This document shows, piece by piece, positions 2,874 through 61,286 of a stretch of 64,000 nucleotides of DNA. Both the position numbers and the translations under genes were made by a program. Below the pieces are notes generated by a model. It was not told the DNA's origin. It ran no database searches and saw only the letters and a program-made list of their open reading frames with translations. Origin of the DNA: an uncultured Gammaproteobacteria bacterium (GTDB lineage Bacteria > Patescibacteriota > Microgenomatia > Levybacterales > UBA12049); NCBI GenBank assembly GCA_964564035.1, contig CAZLZN010000001.1, forward strand, positions 14,845 through 78,844, written 5' to 3'. Position 1 is the first letter of the stretch. Each line of letters starts with the position of its first letter.

Positions 2874-2941
2874 AAAATAATTCTCAATTTAAAATTTTTA
2901 ATTTAAAAATCAAATTTCAATTTATAAAATTTTGAAAATTC

Positions 2942-2955
2942 ATTGAAAATTGAAA
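2942..2955. repeat. Heptamer tandem repeat (ATTGAAA)x2, within an AT-rich spacer that also holds an inverted TTTCAAT / ATTGAAA arrangement.
   Basis: Read directly from the sequence at 2871-2963, between the alaS stop and the start of the downstream gene. Confidence 0.6.
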
Positions 2956-2963
2956 ATTTTTAA

Positions 2964-4811
2964 TTACCCAACAACTGCGTAAATTCTTCTCTGCTTATTC
3001 CCTATATTTTCCTGCTTTATTATCTTAAATGATTTTACTTTGGAAGTAAAATCAACATGCGGTCCTCCGCAAAATTCTATCGAATAAGACTTGTCCGGAC
3101 TCTTTGAATCTCCTCCGATAAAATATATTTTCGATTTTTCGCCGTATGTATCCATAAAAAGTCCGATAGCGCCCATATTCTTCGCTTCTTTTGTCGGAAT
3201 AAGCTCAAAATGCACCTGAATATTTTCCTTGATCTTGTTATTTATCTCTCTCTCAAGCTGAGAGATTTCTTCATCGCTTAGCTTCCTGTCAAAATTAAAA
3301 TCAAACCTCACCCTCTCGGTCGTGATGTTCGATCCTGTTTGATGAAGCTGCTTCCCGAACATATCACGAAGCGCCTGGTGCAATAGATGCGTTGCGGTAT
3401 GCCCCATTATTGTTCTCTCCTGATGATCTGCAAGTCCACCCCGGAATTTTTTCTCGGCTCCTGCCTTTGAAAGCTTTTGGTGCGCTTCCATTTTTTCCGC
3501 AAATGCTTTTTTATCAAAAACATAACCCAGACTGGTTATTTGTGTTGGCGAAAGACCATGCGAAGCGTACAAATAAAACGCGTCGTCCGCTGTAATTTCT
3601 TTATTTCCCATCAGCTCATCCCCGGTTTTAGTACCCAGTCCGTACTTTTTCTCTATATAATGACGGGCGCGTCCAAGTGCGTTGCTATATTTATCTATCT
3701 CTTCAACTATAGTTAGCTTTATACTCTCAAATTTATCAATTAAATACGCATCTGTATCCTTATACTGCTCAATAATTTGTTCAATTATCGGACTTATATC
3801 ATTGCCCCCGAGCTTTGAAAAATGATCGTACCCCCTCCTTATCAATCTACGCAGAATATAACCTTGTTCCGTATTGGAAGGCGTAACTCCTTCTGAAATT
3901 ATGAAACTTCCCGCGACCATATGATCCGTGATTATCCTCATATCCTTATCATTATTCGAGTATTCTTGATTAGTAGTTTTTTCGATTGACCGGATGATCG
4001 GATAAAAAAGCGAAGTCCTGAATACGTCAGGCTGATTTTCTATAGCCAAAAGCATTCTTTCAAGACCTCCCCCGAAATCAACATTGGGCTTCGGAAGGAG
4101 CGTAAGCGAACCATCGGGCATTTTTTTATACTGCATGAATACGCTGTTGGCAATCTCGATAAATCTTCCGCAGTCGCAATTTACATGACAATGACTATCC
4201 TTATACGGACTTTTTTCATGAATTTTGTGTTCTGCTCCGAAATCATAAAACACTTCGCTATCCGGCCCCCCCGGCTCACCCGGCGGCATATTGTTCGGCG
4301 GTCCGCTTCTGGACCACCAGTTTTTATCAACTCCGTATTCCAAAATCCTATTCTCGGGATCAATACCGCTTTTAGCAAATAACTCTTTCCAGATCTCGAT
4401 CGATTCCTTATCTTTACCCACATTTTCGGTACCTTTAAAGACCGTAGCATAAAGCTTCTTCGGATCAAGCTTCAGATTATGCGTCAAAAATTCCCAGATC
4501 CACGGCAATTGTTCCCGCTTGAAATAATCCCCGAGACTCCAGTTCCCAAGCATCCTGAAAAAAGTCGTGTGCCTGTTGTCGCCTATTTCATCTATATCGA
4601 CAGCCCTGAATGAATTCTGGACATTTACAAGCCTTGTTCCCTGCGGGTGTGTCTCACCGAGAAGATACGGAACAAGCGGCTGCATACCCGAACTTGTAAA
4701 GAGTGTAGTCGGATCATTTTGCGGAACAAGCGGAGAATTAGCAATCTGATTATGCCCTCTTTTCTTATAATATTCTATAAAAGATTTCAAAATCTCATGC
4801 GCCTTCATCAC
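2964..4811 (-). CDS. alaS: Alanyl-tRNA synthetase, short form: catalytic, tRNA-recognition and editing domains only, with no C-terminal C-Ala domain.
   Basis: N-terminus ...FIEYYKKRGHNQIANSPLVPQNDPTTLFTSSGMQPLVPYLLG...FRMLGNWSLGDYFK is a class II AlaRS core. Editing-domain motifs HTATHLLHQALR and CGGPHV are present. The protein is 615 aa versus about 870 aa typical. Confidence 0.9.
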   Translation of the reverse strand: MMKAHEILKSFIEYYKKRGHNQIANSPLVPQNDPTTLFTSSGMQPLVPYLLGETHPQGTRLVNVQNSFRAVDIDEIGDNRHTTFFRMLGNWSLGDYFKREQLPWIWEFLTHNLKLDPKKLYATVFKGTENVGKDKESIEIWKELFAKSGIDPENRILEYGVDKNWWSRSGPPNNMPPGEPGGPDSEVFYDFGAEHKIHEKSPYKDSHCHVNCDCGRFIEIANSVFMQYKKMPDGSLTLLPKPNVDFGGGLERMLLAIENQPDVFRTSLFYPIIRSIEKTTNQEYSNNDKDMRIITDHMVAGSFIISEGVTPSNTEQGYILRRLIRRGYDHFSKLGGNDISPIIEQIIEQYKDTDAYLIDKFESIKLTIVEEIDKYSNALGRARHYIEKKYGLGTKTGDELMGNKEITADDAFYLYASHGLSPTQITSLGYVFDKKAFAEKMEAHQKLSKAGAEKKFRGGLADHQERTIMGHTATHLLHQALRDMFGKQLHQTGSNITTERVRFDFNFDRKLSDEEISQLEREINNKIKENIQVHFELIPTKEAKNMGAIGLFMDTYGEKSKIYFIGGDSKSPDKSYSIEFCGGPHVDFTSKVKSFKIIKQENIGNKQRRIYAVVG

Positions 4812-7609: not shown

Positions 7610-7678
7610 GTGATTTTCAAATAAAGGGCTGATATTAAATTTTAAATATTAAAATTTGGTAATAAATTAAAAATCCCC

Positions 7679-8284: not shown

Positions 8285-8412
8285 GGATATTATGTGCTTC
8301 TTTTTGAAATTTAAAAATATTAATTTAATATGTTAAATCAAAACTCAAAAACCATAGGAACAAGCGTCTTAACCATAAAAGGCAAAATGGATCTTTAAGC
8401 CTTGATCTAGGT

Positions 8413-8440
8413 TTTGATCTTTGAGATTTGATTTTTGATC
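8413..8440. repeat. Heptamer tandem repeat (TTTGATC)-like x4: TTTGATC TTTGAGA TTTGATT TTTGATC.
   Basis: Read directly; intergenic, upstream of the small-ORF/polymerase operon. The same unit recurs at 15042-15062. Confidence 0.65.
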
Positions 8441-10031: not shown

Positions 10032-10064
10032 CGAACCTGGTTTGTTTTATATTGACAAACAAGG
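10032..10064 (+). repeat. REP-like element copy B (left flank of the RAYT).
   Basis: cgaacctggtttgttttatattgacaaacaagg; an inverted partner lies at 10769-10800. Confidence 0.7.
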
Positions 10065-10096
10065 ACAGAGTGCGTAATACTAAATTATCGCTTAGT

Positions 10097-10768
10097 ATGC
10101 CATATAGAAAAATTCCACTTGTAAAAAATGAAATTTATCATATCTTCAACCGAAGCATTGCAAGACAGCCTATTTTTAAAACACAAATAGATCACAAACG
10201 AATTCTTGAGATTATAAACTTTTATAGACATGATACCAGACCCCTACGATTTTCACATTTTAAAAGGTTACCAATTGACCAAAAAAAAGATATCTTAGAG
10301 GAATATGCAAAGAATCAAAAATATCTCGTAGAAATATATGCATACTGCGTAATGCCAAATCATTTCCACTTCTTATTAAAAGCAACTCAAGACTCCGGAA
10401 TTTCAATTTTCATGAGAAACCTGCAACATAGTTATTCTAATTATTTTAATATAAAAAACAACAGGACAGGATCATTATTTCAGTCCATGTTTAAAGCAAT
10501 CAGAATAGAAACTGACGAGCAGCTTTTCCATGTTTCAAGATATATTCATTTAAATCCGGCAACTTCATTTATCATACCTATTGAAGCTCTTGAAACATAT
10601 CAATGGTCTTCATTTAAAGATTTTATAAACAAAGCAACTGAAAGCATGATCAATAAGCAGTATATTTATGAGAATTTTAAAAGCGTAGGAGAATACAAAA
10701 AGTTTGTGTATGATCAAGCTGATTATCAGCGCGAGTTAGATAAAATAAAGCACCTTATCTTCAAATAA
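10097..10768 (+). CDS. REP-associated tyrosine transposase (RAYT; IS200/IS605-like HUH Y1 transposase).
   Basis: HUH motif YCVMPNHFHFLL and catalytic Tyr motif RYIHLNP. Flanked by inverted REP copies, one of which abuts the stop codon. The ATG at 10097 is preferred over the TTG at 10052, which lies inside REP B. Confidence 0.75.
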   Translation: MPYRKIPLVKNEIYHIFNRSIARQPIFKTQIDHKRILEIINFYRHDTRPLRFSHFKRLPIDQKKDILEEYAKNQKYLVEIYAYCVMPNHFHFLLKATQDSGISIFMRNLQHSYSNYFNIKNNRTGSLFQSMFKAIRIETDEQLFHVSRYIHLNPATSFIIPIEALETYQWSSFKDFINKATESMINKQYIYENFKSVGEYKKFVYDQADYQRELDKIKHLIFK

Positions 10769-11409: not shown

Positions 11410-11417
11410 ACTTCCCC

Positions 11418-11438
11418 TTAATACTTAATACTTAATAC
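11418..11438. repeat. Heptamer tandem repeat (TTAATAC)x3.
   Basis: Read directly; lies between the MGMT start and the dnaJ stop. The same unit recurs at 56942-56955. Confidence 0.7.
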
Positions 11439-11442
11439 TATC

Positions 11443-12318: not shown

Positions 12319-12406
12319 ATTACTACCTGTTATTTACCAAAAAAGCGCCTTACTGCGCTCAATTATTTCAAATTTCTAATTTATAATTTGAAATTAATTT
12401 TCAATG

Positions 12407-12427
12407 TTTTAAATTTTAAATTTTAAA
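12407..12427. repeat. Heptamer tandem repeat (TTTTAAA)x3.
   Basis: Read directly, in the dnaK-dnaJ spacer. Confidence 0.7.
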
Positions 12428-12439
12428 CATTTATGTTTG

Positions 12440-12474
12440 ATTGAAAATTGAAAATTGAAAATTTCAAATTGAAA
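12440..12474. repeat. Heptamer tandem repeat (ATTGAAA)x3, followed by ATTTCAA and ATTGAAA.
   Basis: Read directly, in the dnaK-dnaJ spacer, ending 1 nt before the dnaK stop. Confidence 0.75.
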
Positions 12475-12475
12475 A

Positions 12476-14398
12476 CTATTCTACCACTTCTCCCTCAACC
12501 GGCTCATCTTTGTCTTTTTTCTTTTTATCTTCTTTTTTCTCGCCCTCAGCATTCTCAGCCTGACCCTCGGCGCCTTGATCCTGAGCCTGATCTCCGGTTG
12601 CGCCGGCTGCACTGTACATGCTCTGACCAATCTTTTGCAGATGATCCGAAAGTTCCTGAGTTTTTGCCTTAATATCTTCTTTGGAACCGCTATCGAGTAT
12701 ATCTTTTAGCGCCTTTACCTTTTCCTCAACTTCTTTCCTCAGATCCTCGCTGATCTTGTCTTTATCTTCACGTAATGCCTTCTCTGCTGTAAATATCAAA
12801 GCATCTGCCTGATTCCTGACTTCAACTTTTTCTTTCTTTTCTTCATCTTCTTTCGCGTGCAATTCAGCCTCTTTGGTCATTTTCTCAACTTCTTCTTTCG
12901 ATAAACCTGTCGATCCGGTTATTTTGATGCTTTGCGCTTTGCCTGTTGCCTTATCTTTCGCGGTAACATTCAGAAGTCCGTTCGCGTCAATATCAAAAGT
13001 AACCTCAATCTGCGGTACGCCTCTCGGCGCCGGCGGAATTCCGTCCAAAATAAATCTCCCCAGTGATTTATTATCGTTCGCCATCGGCCGCTCTCCCTGT
13101 AAAATATTTATTTCTACCTGCGTCTGATTATCGCCTGCTGTAGAAAATACCTGCGATTTTGAAGTAGGAATAGTTGTATTTCTTGTAATAAGCGGCGTAG
13201 ATACTGCCCCCATCGTCTCAATACCCAGAGTCAGTGGCGTAACGTCAAGAAGCAATACGTCCTTAACTTCTCCGCCGAGAACTCCGGCCTGCACGGCCGC
13301 GCCGACTGCGACTACTTCATCCGGATTGACCGATCTATTGGCTTCTTTCCCGAAAAACCGCGTTACAACCTCAACCACTTTAGGCATCCTCGTCATACCT
13401 CCGACCAAAATTACTTCGTTTATATCTTTCTCAGTCATTCCGGCATCTTTTAGAGCCTTCTTGACCGGCTCAAGCGTTTTTTCAACTAATTCACCGACAA
13501 CCATCTCAAGCTTTGATCGTGTCAAAGTCATTGTCAGATGCAGCGGTCCGTCTTTGCCTTGAGTTATAAACGGCTGATTTATTTGCGCTTCCTGACTGCT
13601 GGACAGCTCTATCTTTGCCTTCTCCGCCGACTCTTTCAGCCTCTGAAGGGCTTGCGAATCTTTGCGTAGATCAATACTGTTTTCTTTCTGGAACTCCTCG
13701 GCTATATATTCTATTATTTTCTGATCAAAATCGTCTCCACCGAGATGCGTATCGCCATTCGTGGATTTGACGTGGTATACGCCTTCTCCAAGCTCAAGAA
13801 TTGAGATATCAAAGGTTCCGCCTCCCAAATCATAAACCGCAATCGTGTGTGTATTTTTCTTATCGAGCCCGTATGCCAAAGCTGCAGCTGTCGGTTCATT
13901 AATAATACGAAGTACCTCAAGTCCGGCTATCTCACCGGCCTGTTTGGTAGCCTGTCTCTGACTGTCATCAAAATACGCCGGAACCGTAATGACCGCCTGT
14001 GTTACTTTACTTCCCAAATACGCTTCGGCATCTGCCTTAATTTTCTGAAGAATCATCGCGGAAACTTCCTGCGGAGTAAATGTTTTACCCTCAACCTCAA
14101 CGACTGCCATATCATCACGACCTGCCTTGACTGTATATGGAAGCCATTTTGTATCAAACTGGACAGACTTATCATGGAACTTCTTTCCCATGAGTCTCTT
14201 AATTGAAAAGATTGTCCTCTTTGGCTTAAGCACCATTTGCCTCTTCGCGACGTCTCCGACCACGTGCGAGATTGGATCGACTACAGACGGTATAACATTG
14301 CGTCCTTCTGCGGAATGGATCACTTTTGGCGATCCGCCCTCCATTACAGCGACACACGAATTTGTTGTTCCTAAATCAATTCCTATTATTTTTCCCAT
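12476..14398 (-). CDS. dnaK: Chaperone DnaK (Hsp70).
   Basis: [18 protein letters not shown]..., DLGGGTFD and the full Hsp70 architecture. Confidence 0.95.
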
Positions 14399-14526
14399 AA
14401 TTTCCTTTCGTTAATAAACTACTTGTCAAAATTTATACCTCCCCAAGCTTTCTGATTCGAACTTATCATCAGTGTTCTGCTCTGCAGAACTTCTTCAGCG
14501 CTCTGCTCTGCAGAAATTACAATATC

Positions 14527-15033
14527 TTATTCTTCAGTGTCCTGCTTTGCTGAACCTACTATCACCTGTGCAGGTCTCAAAACCTTATCATTTATTATAT
14601 ACCCGGTTCTCAAAACTTCAAGCACTTTGTTTTCTTCTCCTTCCGCAACTTTTATACATTCCATCAGATTTGGATCAAACTCTTTACCCTGCGCTTCGAT
14701 CTGAGTTACCCCTTCGGCTTTCAGTGCGTCCAGAAACTGATCAATGCTTACTTTCAAACCTTCATTGTTTATGTGCTGATTTGCCAGTAATAGTGTATCC
14801 AAAACAGGCAATAATCGCAATAGCAATTCTCTGTTTGCCGACCTTATTAAATTTAACCTTTCATCTGCCGTCCGTTTCTGTAAATTTTGATAATCGGCAA
14901 GCGCCCTCTTATACTTACTCTCATTTTCCTCAACCTGAGCTTTCAATTTTTCCAGTTCCTGTTCATCCTCAGGTTTCTTCAGCTCTTTTTCTTCTACATC
15001 TTCCTTTTTATTTTTATTATCATCACTCTTCAT
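14527..15033 (-). CDS. grpE: Nucleotide exchange factor GrpE.
   Basis: Coiled-coil N-terminus and GrpE C-terminal motifs; syntenic position hrcA-grpE-dnaK-dnaJ. Confidence 0.9.
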   Translation of the reverse strand: MKSDDNKNKKEDVEEKELKKPEDEQELEKLKAQVEENESKYKRALADYQNLQKRTADERLNLIRSANRELLLRLLPVLDTLLLANQHINNEGLKVSIDQFLDALKAEGVTQIEAQGKEFDPNLMECIKVAEGEENKVLEVLRTGYIINDKVLRPAQVIVGSAKQDTEE

Positions 15034-15041
15034 CTTTAATT

Positions 15042-15062
15042 TTTGATCTTTGATCTTTGATT
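15042..15062. repeat. Heptamer tandem repeat (TTTGATC)x2 plus TTTGATT.
   Basis: Read directly, in the hrcA-grpE spacer. Confidence 0.7.
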
Positions 15063-15068
15063 TTATCT

Positions 15069-15812: not shown

Positions 15813-15839
15813 TTAGCAATAATATAACATGAGTGCCAA
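15813..15839. promoter_or_regulatory. Degenerate CIRCE-like inverted repeat (TTAGCAATA-N9-GAGTGCCAA) immediately upstream of hrcA.
   Basis: Compared by eye with the CIRCE consensus TTAGCACTC-N9-GAGTGCTAA. The right half matches 8/9 and the left half 6/9. It lies about 10 nt upstream of the hrcA ATG. Confidence 0.4.
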
Positions 15840-18316: not shown

Positions 18317-18337
18317 CCTAACACCTAAGCCCTAATC
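18317..18337. repeat. Heptamer repeat (CCTAACA CCTAAGC CCTAATC), adjacent to a TAGGTT-agctaa-AACCTA hairpin at 18303-18320.
   Basis: Read directly; lies at the convergent junction of metG and the sortase, overlapping the sortase stop codon. Confidence 0.5.
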
Positions 18338-23746: not shown

Positions 23747-23807
23747 AATTCATATTTGTAATTTATAATTTGCATAAAAATTTAAAATTATAAATTGAAA
23801 ATTGCCA

Positions 23808-25273: not shown

Positions 25274-25908
25274 AATAAATTCTCCTTTCGCTCGACTGCT
25301 ATATCATAAAAATTATTCAACAATTTTAAACCCGTTTCTCCACTTTTTTCAGGATGAAACTGTACTCCATATATATTTTCATACGCGAAGGCACTGCAGA
25401 ATTTTTTCCCATATCTCGTAACTCCGGCAACAACTGCATCGTCAGCCGGCGCGCAGTAATAACTATTCACAAAATAAAAGTGACTATTATTCTCTATATT
25501 TTTAAATAAATTCTGAATTCTGAATTCTGAATTCTGAATTCCGACTTTATTCCATCCAATTTGCGGCACTTTAAATTTTGTTCTAAATTTCTTTACGTTT
25601 CCCTTTATCAAATCCAGACATTCGGTTTCTCCCTCTTCGCTAAATGACATCATAATCTGCATTCCAAGACAGATACCGAGAATTGGAGTTCCGCTCATCA
25701 CTTTCTCGATTATGACTTGGTCCATACCCGTAGACTTCAAATTTTTCATACCGGTACCCGCTGACCCTACGCCGGGCAATATCAGCGCTTCAGACTTTTG
25801 TAATTCTGAAATGCTGTCTGCAATCAAATAAGGTATCCTCAATTTTTTCAGCGCGTTTGCAACACTGGCCAAATTCCCAAGTCCGTAATCAATTATTGTT
25901 AATTTCAT
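25270..25908 (-). CDS. hisH: Imidazole glycerol phosphate synthase, glutaminase subunit.
   Basis: GxGNLxS, GVG and HPEKS motifs. It carries a 28-nt heptamer array in a loop (see the repeat at 25511-25538). Confidence 0.9.
   Translation of the reverse strand: MKLTIIDYGLGNLASVANALKKLRIPYLIADSISELQKSEALILPGVGSAGTGMKNLKSTGMDQVIIEKVMSGTPILGICLGMQIMMSFSEEGETECLDLIKGNVKKFRTKFKVPQIGWNKVGIQNSEFRIQNLFKNIENNSHFYFVNSYYCAPADDAVVAGVTRYGKKFCSAFAYENIYGVQFHPEKSGETGLKLLNNFYDIAVERKENLL
25511..25538. repeat. Intragenic heptamer tandem array (TTCTGAA)x4 inside hisH; it encodes ...IQNSEFRIQN....
   Basis: Four perfect 7-nt units, read directly. They lie in a loop that is about 4 aa longer than in E. coli HisH, by memory alignment. 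Confidence 0.8.
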
Positions 25909-40811: not shown

Positions 40812-41948
40812 ATGGAAATACGCGAAATTGCTGAGAAAGAAAAAATTGAATTTAACAGAGTCGTCACTCACCCTCTCCAATCCTACGAATGGGGCGAGTT
40901 TCGGCAGGCAACAGGTATCAAAGTAATACGCCGCGGCTTTTATAAAAATAATAAACTTATCAAAGCTTTTACTCTCACAATTCACAAAATCCCCCATACT
41001 CCGTCTACAATCGGCTATTTCCCCAAAGGCGATTTACCCGATACGGATGTAATTCACGAATTAATTAAGATAGGAAAAACGGAAAAATGCATCTTCATCC
41101 AACTCGAACCAAATATCATTAAAAAAAACGTGTCAAAAACTAATATTGTAAATTATGAAAATGAAAATTTAAATTTCATTGAAAATTGTAAATTGAAAAT
41201 TGAAAATTTAACAATTACACCTGCTGCCCATCCCCTCTTTACCAAATATACTTTTGTTCTGGATCTTACAAAAACAGAAGAAGAACTCCTCAAAAATATG
41301 CATTCCAAGGCGCGCTACAACATCAAAGTTGCCAAAAAACACGGCGTCGAGGTTACTGAGAATAACTCAGATAAAGCATTTGAAAACTACCTGAAGCTAA
41401 TGAGTGAAACAACCGCACGCCAAAAATTTTACGCACATACCGAAAATTATCACCGAGTTTTATGGAAAACTTTAAAATGTCATCCCGAATTTATTTCGGG
41501 ATCTTCTAATGACAAGATGCTGAAACAAGTTCAGCATGACAAAACTGGCAAGGAAACCAATAAATTAACAACCCATCTTCTCACTGCCAAATATCAAGAC
41601 AAGATATTAACCGCCTGGATGCTATTTGTTTTTAAAGATTCGCTATATTATCCATATGGCGCCTCAAGCAGTGAAAACCGTGAAGTAATGTCAAGCAGTC
41701 TGATGATGTGGGAAGCAATCAGATTCGGCAAAAAATTAGGACTTAAAAAATTCGACATGTGGGGCGCGCTCGGCCCTGATCCCGACCCCAAAGATCCCTG
41801 GTTTGGCTTTCACAATTTTAAACAAAAATACAGCCCGGACCATGTCGAATTTATCGGAAGCTATGATCTGATCATAAATCCGGCTTTATATCAACTTTAC
41901 AAATTAACCGATAAACTGAGATGGATATATCTAAAATTTAGAAAATAA
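40812..41948 (+). CDS. FemAB-family peptidoglycan aminoacyltransferase (Lipid II / tRNA-dependent cross-bridge formation), by inference.
   Basis: HPLQSYEWGEF..., KARYNIKVAKKHGV and a C-terminal coiled region typical of FemAB/FemX. It carries an in-frame AT-rich heptamer insertion at 41179-41206. Confidence 0.6.
   Translation: MEIREIAEKEKIEFNRVVTHPLQSYEWGEFRQATGIKVIRRGFYKNNKLIKAFTLTIHKIPHTPSTIGYFPKGDLPDTDVIHELIKIGKTEKCIFIQLEPNIIKKNVSKTNIVNYENENLNFIENCKLKIENLTITPAAHPLFTKYTFVLDLTKTEEELLKNMHSKARYNIKVAKKHGVEVTENNSDKAFENYLKLMSETTARQKFYAHTENYHRVLWKTLKCHPEFISGSSNDKMLKQVQHDKTGKETNKLTTHLLTAKYQDKILTAWMLFVFKDSLYYPYGASSSENREVMSSSLMMWEAIRFGKKLGLKKFDMWGALGPDPDPKDPWFGFHNFKQKYSPDHVEFIGSYDLIINPALYQLYKLTDKLRWIYLKFRK
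41179..41206. repeat. Intragenic heptamer tandem array (ATTGAAA ATTGTAA ATTGAAA ATTGAAA) inside the FemAB-like gene; it encodes ...IENCKLKIENL....
   Basis: Read directly. This is the same unit as the intergenic arrays at 2942 and 12440. Confidence 0.75.
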
Positions 41949-42037: not shown

Positions 42038-42610
42038 CTATGGGGAATTTTTATTTATAGTTTTGATCTTTGCACTTTGATCTTTGATCTTTTCTGGTAC
42101 TTCGTACATATAAAACTCGTTCTTCAAATCCTGCTTCACAATCGGCAGATCAATTTTATATACAAAAGTCACAATCTTCGTACCCGGTTTCAGCTCTTTA
42201 AGAAGTTTCGGCTTCAACTTCGCAAGAGTTTTAGGAATAAGATACATAAATACAACTGTCGCATCTCCGATCTCCGACTGGAAAAAATTCTGCCTTTTGA
42301 TCTTTACCTTGTATCCAACGTTATTAATAAATACCATCAATTTTGAAATAAAGTACCTCAGAGGATCAATTTCAATTCCCACCGCTCGCGCGCCGAATTT
42401 CTTCGCAGCCGTAATCAATAGAGTGGAATCCCCGGATCCCAGATCATATATGACATCTTTTTTGGAGATATTTACAAACTTACAAATCAACCGGCTTCGA
42501 GCCCCATTGGTTCTCCACCAGGGAGACCATGGGCTATCAGGCGGCCATACCATTGAGAGCAGGAACAGAAGCAGAGTGACTGTAACTAATATCAGAACCG
42601 ACTCGACCAT
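42038..42610 (-). CDS. Class I SAM-dependent methyltransferase with an N-terminal TM anchor.
   Basis: VIYDLGSGDSTLLI (motif I) and the context AVGIEIDP; it overlaps sodX by 19 nt. Confidence 0.6.
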   Translation of the reverse strand: MVESVLILVTVTLLLFLLSMVWPPDSPWSPWWRTNGARSRLICKFVNISKKDVIYDLGSGDSTLLITAAKKFGARAVGIEIDPLRYFISKLMVFINNVGYKVKIKRQNFFQSEIGDATVVFMYLIPKTLAKLKPKLLKELKPGTKIVTFVYKIDLPIVKQDLKNEFYMYEVPEKIKDQSAKIKTINKNSP

Positions 42611-43014
42611 ATTACTTTTCCTATTATACTCCCTCTGTCGAGATAACCAAAGTACCTGCTGTCGGTACTCATATTTTTATTATCCCCCTCAACAAAATAT
42701 TTACTGCTTTCAATTCCGGTAATTCTTTTAATAAGCACCCTCCCGCCCCTCGGATCTCTAACTGCAACTATATCGCCCTGCTCAGGCTTATCAAAAATAT
42801 ATACTATTCTGCTCACTATAAGCAGATCGCCTTGATTAATAATAGGCTTCATGCTATTGCCATGGATTTTGAAAAATAAAATTGGTGAAAATTTATTAAA
42901 TAACTGAATTAAAGAAGAATATATTTTGAATTTTGAGCTGTAGTTTTGACTGTTGACTTTTGAATTTTTACTTTCTTTATTACTTCGCGGCTTTCGTTGC
43001 TTTAAAAATTTCAT
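42592..43014 (-). CDS. sodX: S26-family signal-peptidase-like protease; predicted NiSOD maturation peptidase SodX.
   Basis: GNSMKP (catalytic Ser) and GDNKNMSTDSRYFG (S26 box E-like). It lies immediately downstream of, and overlapping, sodN. Confidence 0.7.
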   Translation of the reverse strand: MKFLKQRKPRSNKESKNSKVNSQNYSSKFKIYSSLIQLFNKFSPILFFKIHGNSMKPIINQGDLLIVSRIVYIFDKPEQGDIVAVRDPRGGRVLIKRITGIESSKYFVEGDNKNMSTDSRYFGYLDRGSIIGKVIWSSRF

Positions 43015-43393
43015 CGATCTCCTGAATTAATTTCAATAATTCCTCTGCATCCGCCGGGTTTGTTGATTTCTTAGTTTGTCCTGCCGCTTTTGTCGCCTTC
43101 CAAAAAAGATCATGCAGATTTGGATATTTCTCTAAATGCTCAGCCTTGAAATAATCGGTCCACAAAACCCACAAATGATGTTTACAAAGCTCTGCCCGTT
43201 CTTCTTTGATAATAATTGCCCGAGTCTTGAAATGCACATCATCGGATTCATTATATTTTTTTATCGTGTTAAGAATACTTTGTGCTTCAATTCGAGCCTG
43301 GACCGGATCATAAACCCCGCATGGGAGATCGCAGTGTGCATAAGCTGCTTGGACAGGGAGTAGCTGAAATAATTTCTTGATCAAAACTTTCAT
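42980..43393 (-). CDS. sodN: Nickel-containing superoxide dismutase precursor (NiSOD).
   Basis: Leader MKVLIKKLFQLLPVQAAYA, followed by the Ni-hook HCDLPCGVYDP that defines mature NiSOD. The ATG at 43393 is preferred over the longer TTG-containing ORF, and gives a precursor of about 137 aa. Confidence 0.85.
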   Translation of the reverse strand: MKVLIKKLFQLLPVQAAYAHCDLPCGVYDPVQARIEAQSILNTIKKYNESDDVHFKTRAIIIKEERAELCKHHLWVLWTDYFKAEHLEKYPNLHDLFWKATKAAGQTKKSTNPADAEELLKLIQEIDEIFKATKAAK

Positions 43394-48438: not shown

Positions 48439-48465
48439 TTAGCAATCAAATTTGTCAAGTGCTAA
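48439..48465. promoter_or_regulatory. CIRCE operator (TTAGCAATC-N9-AAGTGCTAA) upstream of clpB.
   Basis: Matches the HrcA CIRCE consensus at 8/9 plus 8/9 with an exact 9-nt spacer. It lies 18 nt upstream of the clpB ATG. Confidence 0.6.
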
Positions 48466-56087: not shown

Positions 56088-56294
56088 CTACACGTTTTTC
56101 TCCCATGCGGCAATCGATGAATGGGCCTCATCCGGAGTCAAGATCTTGACGATTATTCCCATTTGCACCATCACATAATCTCCGACGCTTACAGGATCGG
56201 CGCCGATGAGAGCCTTCCTGCTCTCCGTGCCGTACTGAACCAGCGCTGTCCTTCCATCAACTTTTATGACTTTACCCGGTGCCGCAATACACAT
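56088..56294 (-). CDS. hypC: [NiFe]-hydrogenase maturation chaperone HypC.
   Basis: The MCIAAPGKV N-terminus (MC(L/I)A(I/A)P signature); 68 aa. Confidence 0.8.
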   Translation of the reverse strand: MCIAAPGKVIKVDGRTALVQYGTESRKALIGADPVSVGDYVMVQMGIIVKILTPDEAHSSIAAWEKNV

Positions 56295-56301
56295 AAAATA
56301 A

Positions 56302-56336
56302 TTCAGAATTTAAAATTCAGAATTCAGAATTTCTCA
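56302..56336. repeat. Heptamer-phased array TTCAGAA TTTAAAA TTCAGAA TTCAGAA TTTCTCA.
   Basis: Read directly; lies in the hypC / hydrogenase divergent intergenic region. The unit is the reverse complement of the hisH intragenic unit. An (ATTCTAA)x2 follows at 56361-56374. Confidence 0.7.
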
Positions 56337-56411
56337 ACTTTTGATATTCTTAATTATTGAATTCTAAATTCTAAAATTTTGTAAAATATGTTATGATTAT
56401 ATCATCTTTGT

Positions 56412-56918
56412 ATGGATCAGCAGACAGCTCAAAATAAAAAACTCGTTATCGGTTGGTTCTCGTTTACCTGCTGTGAAGACAGTACAATTCTCCTCACCGA
56501 ACTCCTCAATGACAATTTACTCGAATGGAAAAAACTGGTCGAGTTTAGACACCTCAAAGCACTCAAAACAAAAAACTCAATGGAAGGACTTGATGTCGCT
56601 TTTATCGAAGGCGCGGTTTCATCAGATTCCCAGGCGGAAGAGGTCAAAAAAATCAGAAACAATGCCAAATATGTAGTCGCGATCGGCTCCTGTGCCTGCA
56701 CAGGGATGCCCTCAGCGTCCAGAAACGCCTTTGTCAGCGAGCAAATAAACGACAAAATCAAATGGTATATGAGCCAGTTCAGCTATAGCGACAAAGTCCG
56801 CAAGCTCGAAGAGGTCATAACTGTCGACGACAAAGTCCAGGGCTGCCCCATGAGCGCATCATCTTTTATCGAAACTTTGACGAAATACTTAAAGCAATTT
56901 AATATAATAGCGGTTTAA
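56412..56918 (+). CDS. [NiFe]-hydrogenase small subunit, proximal-cluster-only, group-3-like.
   Basis: FTCCEDS, GSCACTG and QGCP cysteine motifs; 168 aa. Confidence 0.75.
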   Translation: MDQQTAQNKKLVIGWFSFTCCEDSTILLTELLNDNLLEWKKLVEFRHLKALKTKNSMEGLDVAFIEGAVSSDSQAEEVKKIRNNAKYVVAIGSCACTGMPSASRNAFVSEQINDKIKWYMSQFSYSDKVRKLEEVITVDDKVQGCPMSASSFIETLTKYLKQFNIIAV

Positions 56919-56941
56919 CAAAAATAAAAAAACCTTTATAC

Positions 56942-56955
56942 TTAATACTTAATAC
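56942..56955. repeat. Heptamer tandem repeat (TTAATAC)x2, just upstream of the hydrogenase large-subunit start.
   Basis: Read directly; the same unit as at 11418-11438. Confidence 0.65.
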
Positions 56956-56960
56956 AAATT

Positions 56961-58265
56961 ATGCACAGCGCCGATATAACAATCGAAAATATAACCAAAA
57001 TAGAAGGTAACGCCAGCTTGAAAGTAACGATCGAAAACGATTCTGTAAAACAACTTCAGTTTATAATCTCGGACTACCGCCGCTTCTACACAACAGCAGT
57101 CAAAGGCAAACCATTCATGACAGTCCCTTCATTCCTGTCCAGAATCTGCGGCACCTGCTCGGTAGCGCATTTATTTGCCTCAATAAAAGCTATAGAGCGG
57201 TCTCAGGGCATCGAAGTCTCCGAACAGACCAAGCTTCTCCGCGCCTTAGCGTATGACGGCCTTATGATCCGCGATCATGCACTGCATTTATACTTCTTCG
57301 TTTTACCCGATATTCTCGGAATTGATTCAATCCTCGACATTCCGGACGATGACAACAATCCCGGCCATATTCTTCTTCACGATTCCTTTGACATAAAACG
57401 CCTTGGCACAGATATCACAAACGTGATTATAGGAGCCGCGATCCACGCGCCCTTCCCGACGATCGGAGGATTCCTCAAAAACCCCGATCCATCCAAATTC
57501 CCCGAACTGATCCAAAGACTTGAAGCCATCCGGCCGCAGGTACTTCGCGGCATTAAAACCTTCTATGACTGGAACGCGTCATTGATTCGCAATTCCAACT
57601 ACTTAGGGCTTCGCAGTGAAAAAAAATTCGACTTTCTGGAAGGCGACGTATTCAATTCCAACGGCAGACTTATCGCGCAAAATGATTTCAAGAATTATCT
57701 CAGGTACGTCCAAATTCCCTATTCACAAGCTGAGGGTTATGAATTCTCCGACACACAAAAAGACTACCTTGCCGGCTCATTAGCGAGAATAAACCTCAAT
57801 AAAGACCTCCTTCACGAACGTACCAAAAAAGATGCAGCCGAGTATATCGCGGCTTTCCCCTCTAACAATATCTATCACAATAATCTCGCACAGGCAATAG
57901 AAATACTTCACTGCGTAGATGAAGCAATAGATATCTTGAAAACGATCCAAATATCACCCGATGAAAAACCCGTTCGCAAACCTCCTCAGGCAGGCGTTGG
58001 CGTCGGACTTGTCGAAGCTCCAAGAGGCATACTATATCATATGGCCAAAGTAAACGACAAAGGACTGATCGAAGACTACGACGTGATCGTACCTACAGCC
58101 CAAAACCAAATTCAAATAGAAAACGATCTCAAAGAATATTTCAACAGAAATTTAAATAAACCGGAAGAAGAACTCAGACTGGATGCTGAGAAAATTATCA
58201 GAGCCTACGACCCCTGCATGTCCTGCGCCACCAATTTCCTCAAAATCGACTGGATACGCAAATAA
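56961..58265 (+). CDS. [NiFe]-hydrogenase large subunit (group 3 type).
   Basis: L1 RICGTCSVAH and L2 DPCMSCATN motifs; 434 aa. Confidence 0.85.
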   Translation: MHSADITIENITKIEGNASLKVTIENDSVKQLQFIISDYRRFYTTAVKGKPFMTVPSFLSRICGTCSVAHLFASIKAIERSQGIEVSEQTKLLRALAYDGLMIRDHALHLYFFVLPDILGIDSILDIPDDDNNPGHILLHDSFDIKRLGTDITNVIIGAAIHAPFPTIGGFLKNPDPSKFPELIQRLEAIRPQVLRGIKTFYDWNASLIRNSNYLGLRSEKKFDFLEGDVFNSNGRLIAQNDFKNYLRYVQIPYSQAEGYEFSDTQKDYLAGSLARINLNKDLLHERTKKDAAEYIAAFPSNNIYHNNLAQAIEILHCVDEAIDILKTIQISPDEKPVRKPPQAGVGVGLVEAPRGILYHMAKVNDKGLIEDYDVIVPTAQNQIQIENDLKEYFNRNLNKPEEELRLDAEKIIRAYDPCMSCATNFLKIDWIRK

Positions 58266-59343: not shown

Positions 59344-59364
59344 CCCTAAGCCCTAAGCCCTAAA
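59344..59364. repeat. Heptamer tandem repeat (CCCTAAG)x2 plus CCCTAAA.
   Basis: Read directly; intergenic. Confidence 0.7.
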
Positions 59365-61049: not shown

Positions 61050-61140
61050 TTCCCAACTATTTCTCTTTAAGTATACAGAACATACATCTACAAAATCAAT
61101 ACAGCTATTGACATAAATTTTTATTTAATATAAAGTTATT

Positions 61141-61286
61141 ACTAATCAAGAGTGATGGGGAGAGAATTGGCTCAACGATCCATCCGGCAACCCCGCTAAG
61201 CGGGGTGCCAAACCCAAACCCGTGAGGGAAGGATTAGCTCCGATTATTTCGGGGAAACATCTTACCCCGCTCGGCGGGGTTTTTTT
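61141..61286 (+). promoter_or_regulatory. SAM-I (S-box) riboswitch with an intrinsic terminator.
   Basis: cTAATCAAGAG...GGGGAGAG...GGCAACC...GGTGCCAAACCC...GGATTAG matches SAM-I conserved blocks (AUCAAGAG, GGCAACC, GGUGCUAAAUCC, P1 closure). A terminator CCCCGC-tcg-GCGGGG plus U7 ends 1 nt before the metF ATG. A TTGACA -35 lies at 61108. Confidence 0.8.

Follow-up and report, generated by a model that had tools for sequence, protein, structure and literature searches.

Tandem repeats of seven-nucleotide units have been known in cyanobacteria since 1990, where the short tandemly repeated repetitive (STRR) sequences are built from CCCCAGT and similar units. Among long simple-sequence repeats (SSR), heptamers rank first in abundance in many bacteria, and the general bacterial excess described by Mrazek in 2007 has been related to 7 nt being the DNA segment that contacts the polymerase, which would favour slippage (both points as summarised in PMC4679880 and PMC4692102). 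The function of the 7-bp cyanobacterial repeats, which occur for example between hupS and hupL, is given as unknown, with transcript stabilisation or translation coupling as suggestions (PMC2670836). In Beggiatoaceae, TAACTGA repeats are described as forward-oriented and placed immediately ahead of start codons (PMC4679880), and the G-rich heptamers of Xanthomonas and Nostoc are reported to differ in length and sequence from one related species to another at corresponding intergenic sites (PMC4692102). Within the literature that we searched, no paper reports a heptamer pattern in Patescibacteria. Here we describe arrays of heptamers in a stretch of 64,000 nt, hereafter the window, from a Levybacterales genome of the Patescibacteriota (GCA_964564035.1, contig CAZLZN010000001.1, positions 14,845 to 78,844), with a focus on those between dnaK and dnaJ.

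The window has genuine heptanucleotide microsatellites, over-represented at period 7 only. Tandem Repeats Finder (TRF) assigned period 7 to 26 of its 62 rows in the window. An exact-run scan of the same DNA revealed 13 arrays at period 7 against 0-2 at each other period from 2 to 16 at a matched run of at least 9, and 7 arrays against none at the other periods at a matched run of at least 12. The original prediction, made from the sequence of the window, had proposed a histogram of period 7 against its neighbours at matched AT content as the decisive check. This was run on the window DNA with 200 simulations, in which dinucleotide content was preserved separately for each coding and intergenic segment and AT content was hence matched. 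The spike survived, with 12 period-7 arrays observed against 0.26 expected (simulation maximum 3), and the remaining periods between 4 and 12 were at their simulated expectation. No lag-7 signal was left in intergenic DNA once the arrays had been masked, so the spacers are not wholesale decayed heptamers. The window arrays were recovered base for base in Logan contigs, about 35 independent ones drawn from over 20 sequencing runs, and, because independent assemblies give identical sequence, they are not assembly artefacts. The Rfam search returned no RNA family at any heptamer array.

The gene content of the window, with a short AlaRS of 615 aa, an HrcA of 244 aa and an hrcA-grpE-dnaK-dnaJ cluster on the minus strand, points to a bacterium of the candidate phyla radiation (CPR); the DnaJ protein, of 291 aa, gives a split match to the DnaJ model, with about 70 central model positions skipped. 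The closest DnaK relatives, at 78-85% identity, come from metagenome-assembled genomes of Candidatus Levybacteria/Levyibacteriota and other Microgenomates, and the same strain, at 99.85-100% identity, is represented among the Logan assemblies of over 20 runs. At 13 arrays in 64 kb, the window reaches 0.20 period-7 arrays per kb, with the other periods at expectation. In 53 related Microgenomates dnaK neighbourhoods (919 kb) we found 50 period-7 arrays, or 0.054 per kb, against 2-13 for periods 4-11. An unrelated control of 48 bacterial loci (466 kb), taken around distant hisH homologues of no more than 45% identity from a protein-based scan of Joint Genome Institute (JGI) data, had 4 period-7 arrays, or 0.0086 per kb, without a spike (15 arrays at period 6, 9 at period 9 and 9 at period 10), and no spike at period 7 appeared in its AT-rich part either (299 kb with GC below 0.45). 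Both the window and the relatives exceed this control in period-7 arrays, the difference being highly significant. The relatives are patchy, with 6 arrays in one locus (L007), 5 in another (L010) and none in many. The period-7 spike is lineage-specific and not universal. The statement that repeats of such density are not expected in an ordinary bacterial genome was nevertheless too strong, as a heptanucleotide excess is documented in many bacteria (PMC4679880, PMC4692102).

Figures on the placement of arrays pool the window with the related Microgenomates loci, and several arrays counted there as lying in an open reading frame (ORF) are artefacts of naive ORF calling. Intergenic DNA makes up 8.2% of the pooled sequence and holds 43 of the 83 arrays, a density 12 times that of coding DNA (P = 6e-25). 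Same-strand spacers carry 37 of these 43, against 61% of intergenic length (P = 3e-4), and 18 of the 37 start no more than 5 nt past the upstream stop codon, where 4.7 would be expected (P < 5e-5); degenerate periodicity often extends into that stop codon itself. Downstream start codons showed no such enrichment, with 4 arrays at a distance of 5 nt or less against 4.7 expected. The orientation of units relative to transcription was likewise unbiased in composition (13 units were richer in A than in T against 11 richer in T, and 18 richer in G than in C against 11 richer in C), and no strand-specific composition or 4-mer bias relative to transcription was significant. Intergenic units containing a stop codon number 30 of 37 on the sense strand and 28 of 37 on the antisense strand, and with stop content equal on both strands the idea of a three-frame stop device placed after genes was rejected. 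Spacers with arrays are longer than those without, the medians being 54 against 18 nt for hrcA-grpE and 84 against 26 nt for grpE-dnaK. The description of the arrays as residents of operon-internal spacers is thus correct in that same-strand spacers are favoured and incomplete in that others are coding (in hisH, a FemAB-like ORF, a methyltransferase C-terminus and a SodX-like N-terminus), divergent (7635, 56300-56375 and 59344) or convergent (18317).

We turn to the dnaK-dnaJ spacer; here and below, strands are stated for the features to which one was assigned. The dnaK gene is on the minus strand with its ORF end at 12476, and an (ATTGAAA) array of 5.1 copies at 12440..12475 (TRF score 58) finishes directly before the dnaK stop codon, the perfectly periodic core at 12440-12463 being 12 nt from that stop. 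As this array abuts the stop, it opens the dnaK 3' untranslated region (UTR). Next to it, TRF and the sequence itself delimit an array of degenerate ATTTCAA-like heptamers at 12365..12427 (9.1 copies, 76% matches), of which three perfect TTTTAAA units at 12407-12427 form a part. Between the arrays and dnaJ stands an intrinsic-terminator-like hairpin on the minus strand (GAGCGCAGTAAGGCGCTT + TTTT, 12343..12360), found in the same place in most relatives and followed there by a TATAAT-like box. Because this hairpin separates dnaK from dnaJ, the focal arrays occupy the dnaK 3' UTR; they are present in the spacer as claimed, yet the spacer, with its terminator hairpin, is not simply internal to an operon. 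Folding of spacer RNA is weak: z is -2.25 for dnaK-dnaJ, where the terminator accounts for most of it, and 0.0 for the spacer after alaS.

Units that follow dnaK differ by genome, being ATTGAAA in the window, TAAACAG in at least 17 copies in L007, AAGTTAT in L011 and L012 and AATTNCT in L037, and many close relatives have spacers of 0-20 nt at the corresponding sites, without an array. Decayed arrays with a kept core and variable flanks were also found, as NNTAGAA in four copies in L016, L010 and L019 and as CCTAANN in the window. When sites were examined for phased RNA binding of the HutP/TRAP type, some relatives had NNTAGAA at period 7, and the units were diverse and without strand bias.

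Several further observations concern these heat-shock spacers. The dnaK-dnaJ spacer of L007 (11920-12136) has the architecture of the window's with the array greatly expanded, its TAAACAG copies being broken by a run of N (a gap or masking) and followed by a terminator hairpin. Arrays of heptamers, sometimes of 8-9-nt units, often occur in relatives as inverted pairs around a short loop (L012 at 2970-3040 and spacers of L081, L023 and L016), and such pairs would form long AU-rich hairpins adjoining dnaK. The grpE-dnaK spacer of the window (14399-14526, minus) has upstream of dnaK an imperfect 21-nt direct repeat, TTCTGCAGAGCAGAGCGCTGA / TTCTGCAGAGCAGAACACTGA, with 26 nt between the copies, which is not a heptamer array. 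Two CIRCE-like inverted repeats of the form TTAGCA-N15-GTGCYAA lie at 15813-15839 and 48439-48465, with 3 and 2 mismatches to the consensus and none expected by chance; one overlaps a promoter-like site upstream of hrcA and the other is in a divergent region between two large genes.

About 20 dispersed heptamer loci were counted in the 64-kb window, mostly with 2-5 copies per array (range 2-9), and TRF found perfect and decayed arrays side by side. The spacer following the alaS stop carries 6.7 degenerate AATTTAA copies and 2.4 perfect ATTGAAA copies at 2886..2958, the perfect array at 2942 being 5 nt from that stop. TTAAATT (3.3 copies) lies at 7635..7657 in the divergent region between an SRAP gene and a LexA/UmuD-like gene, and TTTTGAT/TTTGATC (4 copies, 76% matches) at 8412..8439 downstream of the umuD-like gene. 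Two short spacers are filled by their arrays: the 33-nt dnaJ-ogt spacer by 3.3 perfect copies of CTTAATA (11417..11439), 3 nt past the dnaJ stop and 7 nt ahead of the ogt start, and the 35-nt hrcA-grpE spacer by 4.3 copies of ATCTTTG/TTTGATC (15032..15065). In the convergent gap between metG and a sortase gene, the degenerate CCTAANN array (CCTAACA CCTAAGC CCTAATC, 18317..18337) overlaps the sortase stop codon with its last unit. The divergent region of hypC and the hydrogenase small-subunit gene holds 4.6 copies of AATTCAG and 2.3 of AATTCTA (56300..56375), which form an imperfect inverted pair and fold into a hairpin. Between the hydrogenase small- and large-subunit genes, 3.1 copies of CTTAATA (56934..56955) lie 5 nt ahead of the large-subunit start, and 2.9 copies of CCCTAAG (59344..59363) are found in the divergent aquaporin/DUF6390 region.

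Coding sequences are also affected. A perfect array of 4.7 AATTCTG copies, 33 nt long, lies on the minus strand at 25509..25541 inside hisH, where the coding strand reads GAATTCA; its previous assignment, as 25511, to the hisF-hisI spacer was wrong. That spacer (23747-23807) does carry heptamers, namely other ones, and is filled by 2.7 copies of ATTTGTA and 4.1 of TAAAAAT at 23754..23803. HisH has 212 residues with the amidotransferase domain at residues 5-201, and the array encodes GIQNSEFRIQN in the loop following GWNKV; in solved HisH structures this loop is 4-7 residues shorter. An ATTGAAA-family array of 9.4 copies (41145..41209, plus, 71% matches, core 41178-41208) is translated as ...NENLNFIENCKLKIENL... 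within a FemAB-family ORF. On the minus strand, 4.4 copies of TTTGATC (42062..42092) form the C-terminal tail of a methyltransferase-like ORF (42038-42610), and 6.7 degenerate copies of the TTTTGA[AC] type (42923..42968, 72% matches) lie in the N-terminal coding part of an S26/SodX-like peptidase gene. In an IF-2-like gene, three relatives have arrays at one linker position with AATTCAG, GTATCAA or AGGGAAA as the unit. None of the coding arrays contains a stop codon on the coding strand. The IF-2 linker arrays were located at 20424-20460 in L010, 17108-17139 in L051 and 19880-19900 in L039; that of L010, with 5.3 copies of AATTCAG, encodes VQNSEFRIQNSEL and has the motif IQNSEFRIQN in common with the HisH insertion of the window.

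All arrays listed in the original prediction were thus found again, with ATTGAAA at 2942, 12440 and 41178, TTTTAAA in three copies at 12407, TTTGATC at 8412 and 15042, CTTAATA at 11417 and 56934, AATTCTG at 25509, AATTCAG at 56300, AATTCTA at 56360, CCCTAAG at 59344 and CCTAANN at 18317-18337; those at 2886-2932, 7635-7657, 12365-12427, 23754-23803, 41145-41177, 42062-42092 and 42923-42968 had escaped it. Its view of the units as unrelated was not borne out. ATTGAAA occurs at three window loci, TTTGATC at three and CTTAATA at two, and AATTCAG and AATTCTG are reverse complements; in total, six pairs of units belong to an identical class, where the intergenic 7-mer spectrum of the window itself predicts 0.30 (P = 2.5e-4). 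The unit classes AAGTATT, AATTCAG and AAAATTG were also met in other genomes. Dispersed copies of the same family tended to share the DNA strand irrespective of gene direction, with 7 concordant and 2 discordant cases in a manual count of independent comparisons, which falls short of significance (P about 0.09). Arrays of one family have unrelated flanks, and the idea of a larger mobile element surrounding them was rejected.

No change of copy number was detected. In arrays shorter than 31 nt we found no indel across the roughly 35 Logan contigs from more than 20 runs, among which were SNP-divergent strains (0.1-0.15%, or 8-10 single-nucleotide polymorphisms (SNPs) per 6.5-7.5 kb). Whichever side it approaches from, every Logan contig assembled at k = 31 (about 20 runs, loci L087-L103) stops within the 33-nt hisH array; these breaks may reflect mixed alleles or, equally, 31-mers shared with another (AATTCAG)n locus or with a co-occurring relative such as L010. 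A search for copy-number variants through 90% protein clusters gave singletons only, and a pattern scan of JGI metagenomes for hisH alleles gave no match. The neighbours of arrays are genes for chaperones, aminoacyl-tRNA synthetases, histidine biosynthesis and hydrogenase, and not surface, antigenic or restriction-modification genes.

In comparison with the systems described so far, the window arrays share the properties of heptanucleotide SSR and STRR-like repeats, in that they are head-to-tail tandem, in excess at period 7, dispersed in mostly non-coding DNA and drawn from a limited number of families. The survey of Mrazek, Guo and Shah (2007), as summarised in PMC4679880 and PMC4692102, likewise has period 7 as the dominant long-unit repeat with a sporadic taxonomic spread, and it predates CPR genomes. 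The STRR of Calothrix, Nostoc and Anabaena are similar in having tandem 7-nt units in few families per genome, at many dispersed and mostly intergenic loci including operon spacers, with hairpins where inverted, and their hupS-hupL location parallels the array between the hydrogenase subunit genes of the window (56934-56955). In the strict sense the window arrays are not cyanobacterial STRR, since the host is Levybacteria-like, of the CPR/Microgenomates with a genome of about 1 Mb, and the units are AT-rich and other than the canonical ones, in short arrays of 2-9 copies. The TAACTGA repeats of marine Beggiatoaceae and some cyanobacteria and Bacteroidetes are also direct heptamers of 2-6 copies in intergenic DNA, operons of essential genes included, and are often found beside genes without a Shine-Dalgarno sequence (PMC4679880). 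They differ in having one dominant unit genome-wide, whereas the arrays described here have many units of unbiased orientation and are enriched after stops, not before starts, so that they do not belong to this start-proximal type (4 near starts against 4.7 expected). The GGGAATC and GGGGA(T/C)T repeats of Xanthomonas and Nostoc resemble ours as a lineage-specific intergenic heptamer spike with other periods normal and some inverted pairs (PMC4692102), and in both cases related species differ at corresponding intergenic sites; the Xanthomonas and Nostoc units are G-rich and quadruplex-capable, in contrast to the AT-rich window units, which cannot form quadruplexes.

We consider it probable that the arrays are heptanucleotide microsatellites of the STRR kind in a Levybacteria-like genome, which arise when slippage or tandem duplication operates with a 7-nt register and are then filtered by selection. 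A DNA-level process would duplicate 7-nt segments and then expand them, and slipped-strand mispairing, with its register set by the polymerase-DNA contact, may be that process. Duplication would act anywhere in the genome and selection would remove most of its products: about 80% of AT-rich units contain a stop codon and three copies would put a stop in every reading frame, so that arrays would survive mainly in unconstrained DNA. The chief refuge would be just past a stop codon, ahead of whatever terminator, promoter or ribosome-binding site serves the gene that follows on the same strand, and stop-free units in frame could persist in tolerant protein loops and linkers. Once present, arrays would lengthen spacers, decay by point mutation and sometimes re-expand, and inverted pairs could form AU-rich hairpins; functions in transcript stability or gene spacing would be secondary and are unproven. 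A generator is favoured because arrays are also coding, units differ at orthologous sites, spacers of array-free relatives are shorter and orientation is unbiased. The common generating mechanism proposed from the sequence is accordingly the better-supported half of that proposal in its slippage version, and nothing supports a templating enzyme.

A number of points weigh against slippage filtered by selection. With no change of copy number observed, ongoing slippage is something we infer. Slippage alone gives no reason for 7 over 5, 6 or 8, and random seeding does not predict unit families that recur within the genome (P = 2.5e-4) or across genomes. In many relatives the hrcA-grpE-dnaK-dnaJ spacers again carry arrays, and the abutment on stop codons (18 of 37 against 4.7) could mean function or a localised mutational trigger beyond mere tolerance. 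Finally, the evidence from this genome consists of the 64-kb window and 9.4 kb of flanking DNA in which no array was found, against about 2 expected (P about 0.1).

Some of these points would suit arrays that act in cis in mRNA or single-stranded DNA and are read in a 7-nt register by a protein with a site of about 7 nt, such as a cold-shock-domain protein, ribosomal protein S1 or a HutP-like ring binder of phased triplets, which would tune 3'-UTR stability, termination or translational coupling. Non-random placement next to stop codons and in same-strand spacers, recurrence in the heat-shock spacers of relatives, genome-specific unit families, decayed arrays that keep a core (NNTAGAA in four copies; CCTAANN) and inverted arrays forming hairpins all fit this proposal, and the same role has been put forward for TAACTGA repeats and the hupS-hupL STRR (PMC4679880, PMC2670836). 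We nevertheless hold it to be rather unlikely, because one genome has many different units without orientation bias towards the transcribed strand, identical units occur in coding loops, many close relatives have array-free spacers of 0-20 nt at the same sites, start codons are not enriched (4 against 4.7) and spacer RNA folds weakly; the common reader of a 7-nt phase, offered from the sequence as an alternative, thus lacks support for any sequence-specific protein. We regard it as quite improbable that a sequence-targeted DNA enzyme left the arrays as its footprints, be it an element that duplicates a 7-bp target or a Y1 transposase-like single-strand activity. Such an enzyme would account for the fixed length, the strict period of 7 and the limited set of unit families, family copies are mostly on one DNA strand (7 against 2, not significant at P about 0.09), and a conserved Y1_Tnp-like gene lies at 10052-10768; on the other hand, same-family arrays have neither element ends nor flank similarity around them, and a scan of roughly 25 window proteins and of the Logan gene calls revealed no other transposase. 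IS200/IS605-type Y1 transposases are not known to make target duplications, which also counts against this explanation.

Contingency loci, in which hypermutable copy number would switch expression or reading frame of adjacent genes, were implied by the suggestion to compare copy numbers between strains. A unit length that is not a multiple of three, the position of some arrays in promoter regions or genes, and the breaks of k = 31 contigs from about 20 runs within the hisH array, as mixed alleles would cause, agree with them. The comparison gave no support, as the shorter arrays had no indel over about 35 contigs, copies are mostly 2-5, the neighbours are housekeeping genes and the hisH breaks are equally explained by pure-repeat 31-mers shared with another locus or relative; we regard this explanation as very improbable. 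Chance in AT-rich low-complexity DNA, or an assembly artefact, might be thought of for short arrays in a genome of about 40% GC overall and 36% in intergenic DNA. It is refuted to the point of being hardly conceivable by the 12 arrays against 0.26 at period 7 only, an AT-rich control without a spike and the identity of independent assemblies. Since the register of 7, the recurring families and the nucleation at stop codons lack an explanation, we keep a modest probability for something mechanistically new: it is conceivable, though unlikely, that Microgenomates have a still active, lineage-specific process of heptamer duplication, nucleating preferentially at the end of translation, or 3'-UTR elements read in a 7-nt register. 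That process could be a property of a reduced replisome or repair system or an unrecognised enzyme, and its nucleation could proceed, for example, through R-loops or exposed single-stranded DNA past the stop; a 3'-UTR reader may be a cold-shock-domain or S1-type protein.

Other features of the window should also be mentioned. The Y1_Tnp (IS200-like) domain protein encoded at 10052-10768 on the plus strand, of about 232-238 aa, is larger than typical IS200 TnpA; its gene stands between dinB-like and ogt-like genes, is identical in all contigs and has no inverted ends that we could see, and the protein may be a domesticated or REP-associated-type transposase. A SAM riboswitch (RF00162, 55.2 bits) at 61140-61239 on the plus strand lies upstream of an unannotated ORF of 317 aa, which is followed by split MetE-like genes (Meth_synt_1, Meth_synt_2). 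A nickel superoxide dismutase gene with that for a SodX-type maturation peptidase occupies 42592-43393, and hypC with the [NiFe]-hydrogenase small- and large-subunit genes 56088-58265. The 3' ends of two contigs (L170 and L171), about 8 kb past the window end, enter a 16S rRNA gene, identified visually by the conserved sequence at its 5' end.

For work on metagenome-assembled genomes, the arrays matter in annotation, as they add peptide segments to conserved proteins such as HisH and IF-2, and in assembly, as they break short-k contigs, all those built at k = 31 stopping in the hisH array. The finding extends a known class of repeats to CPR bacteria, with their very small genomes and pared-down replication and repair, and reveals no new system; for the heptamer repeats known so far, no cause of the 7-nt register has been established, nor has a function. 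If Microgenomates did have a duplicating activity or a 3'-UTR reader of their own, phylogenetic profiling across genomes of about 1 Mb, in which the spike is patchy, would bring the old question "why seven?" within reach. Close relatives with and without the spike coexist, and by comparative genomics this contrast could identify the factor responsible.

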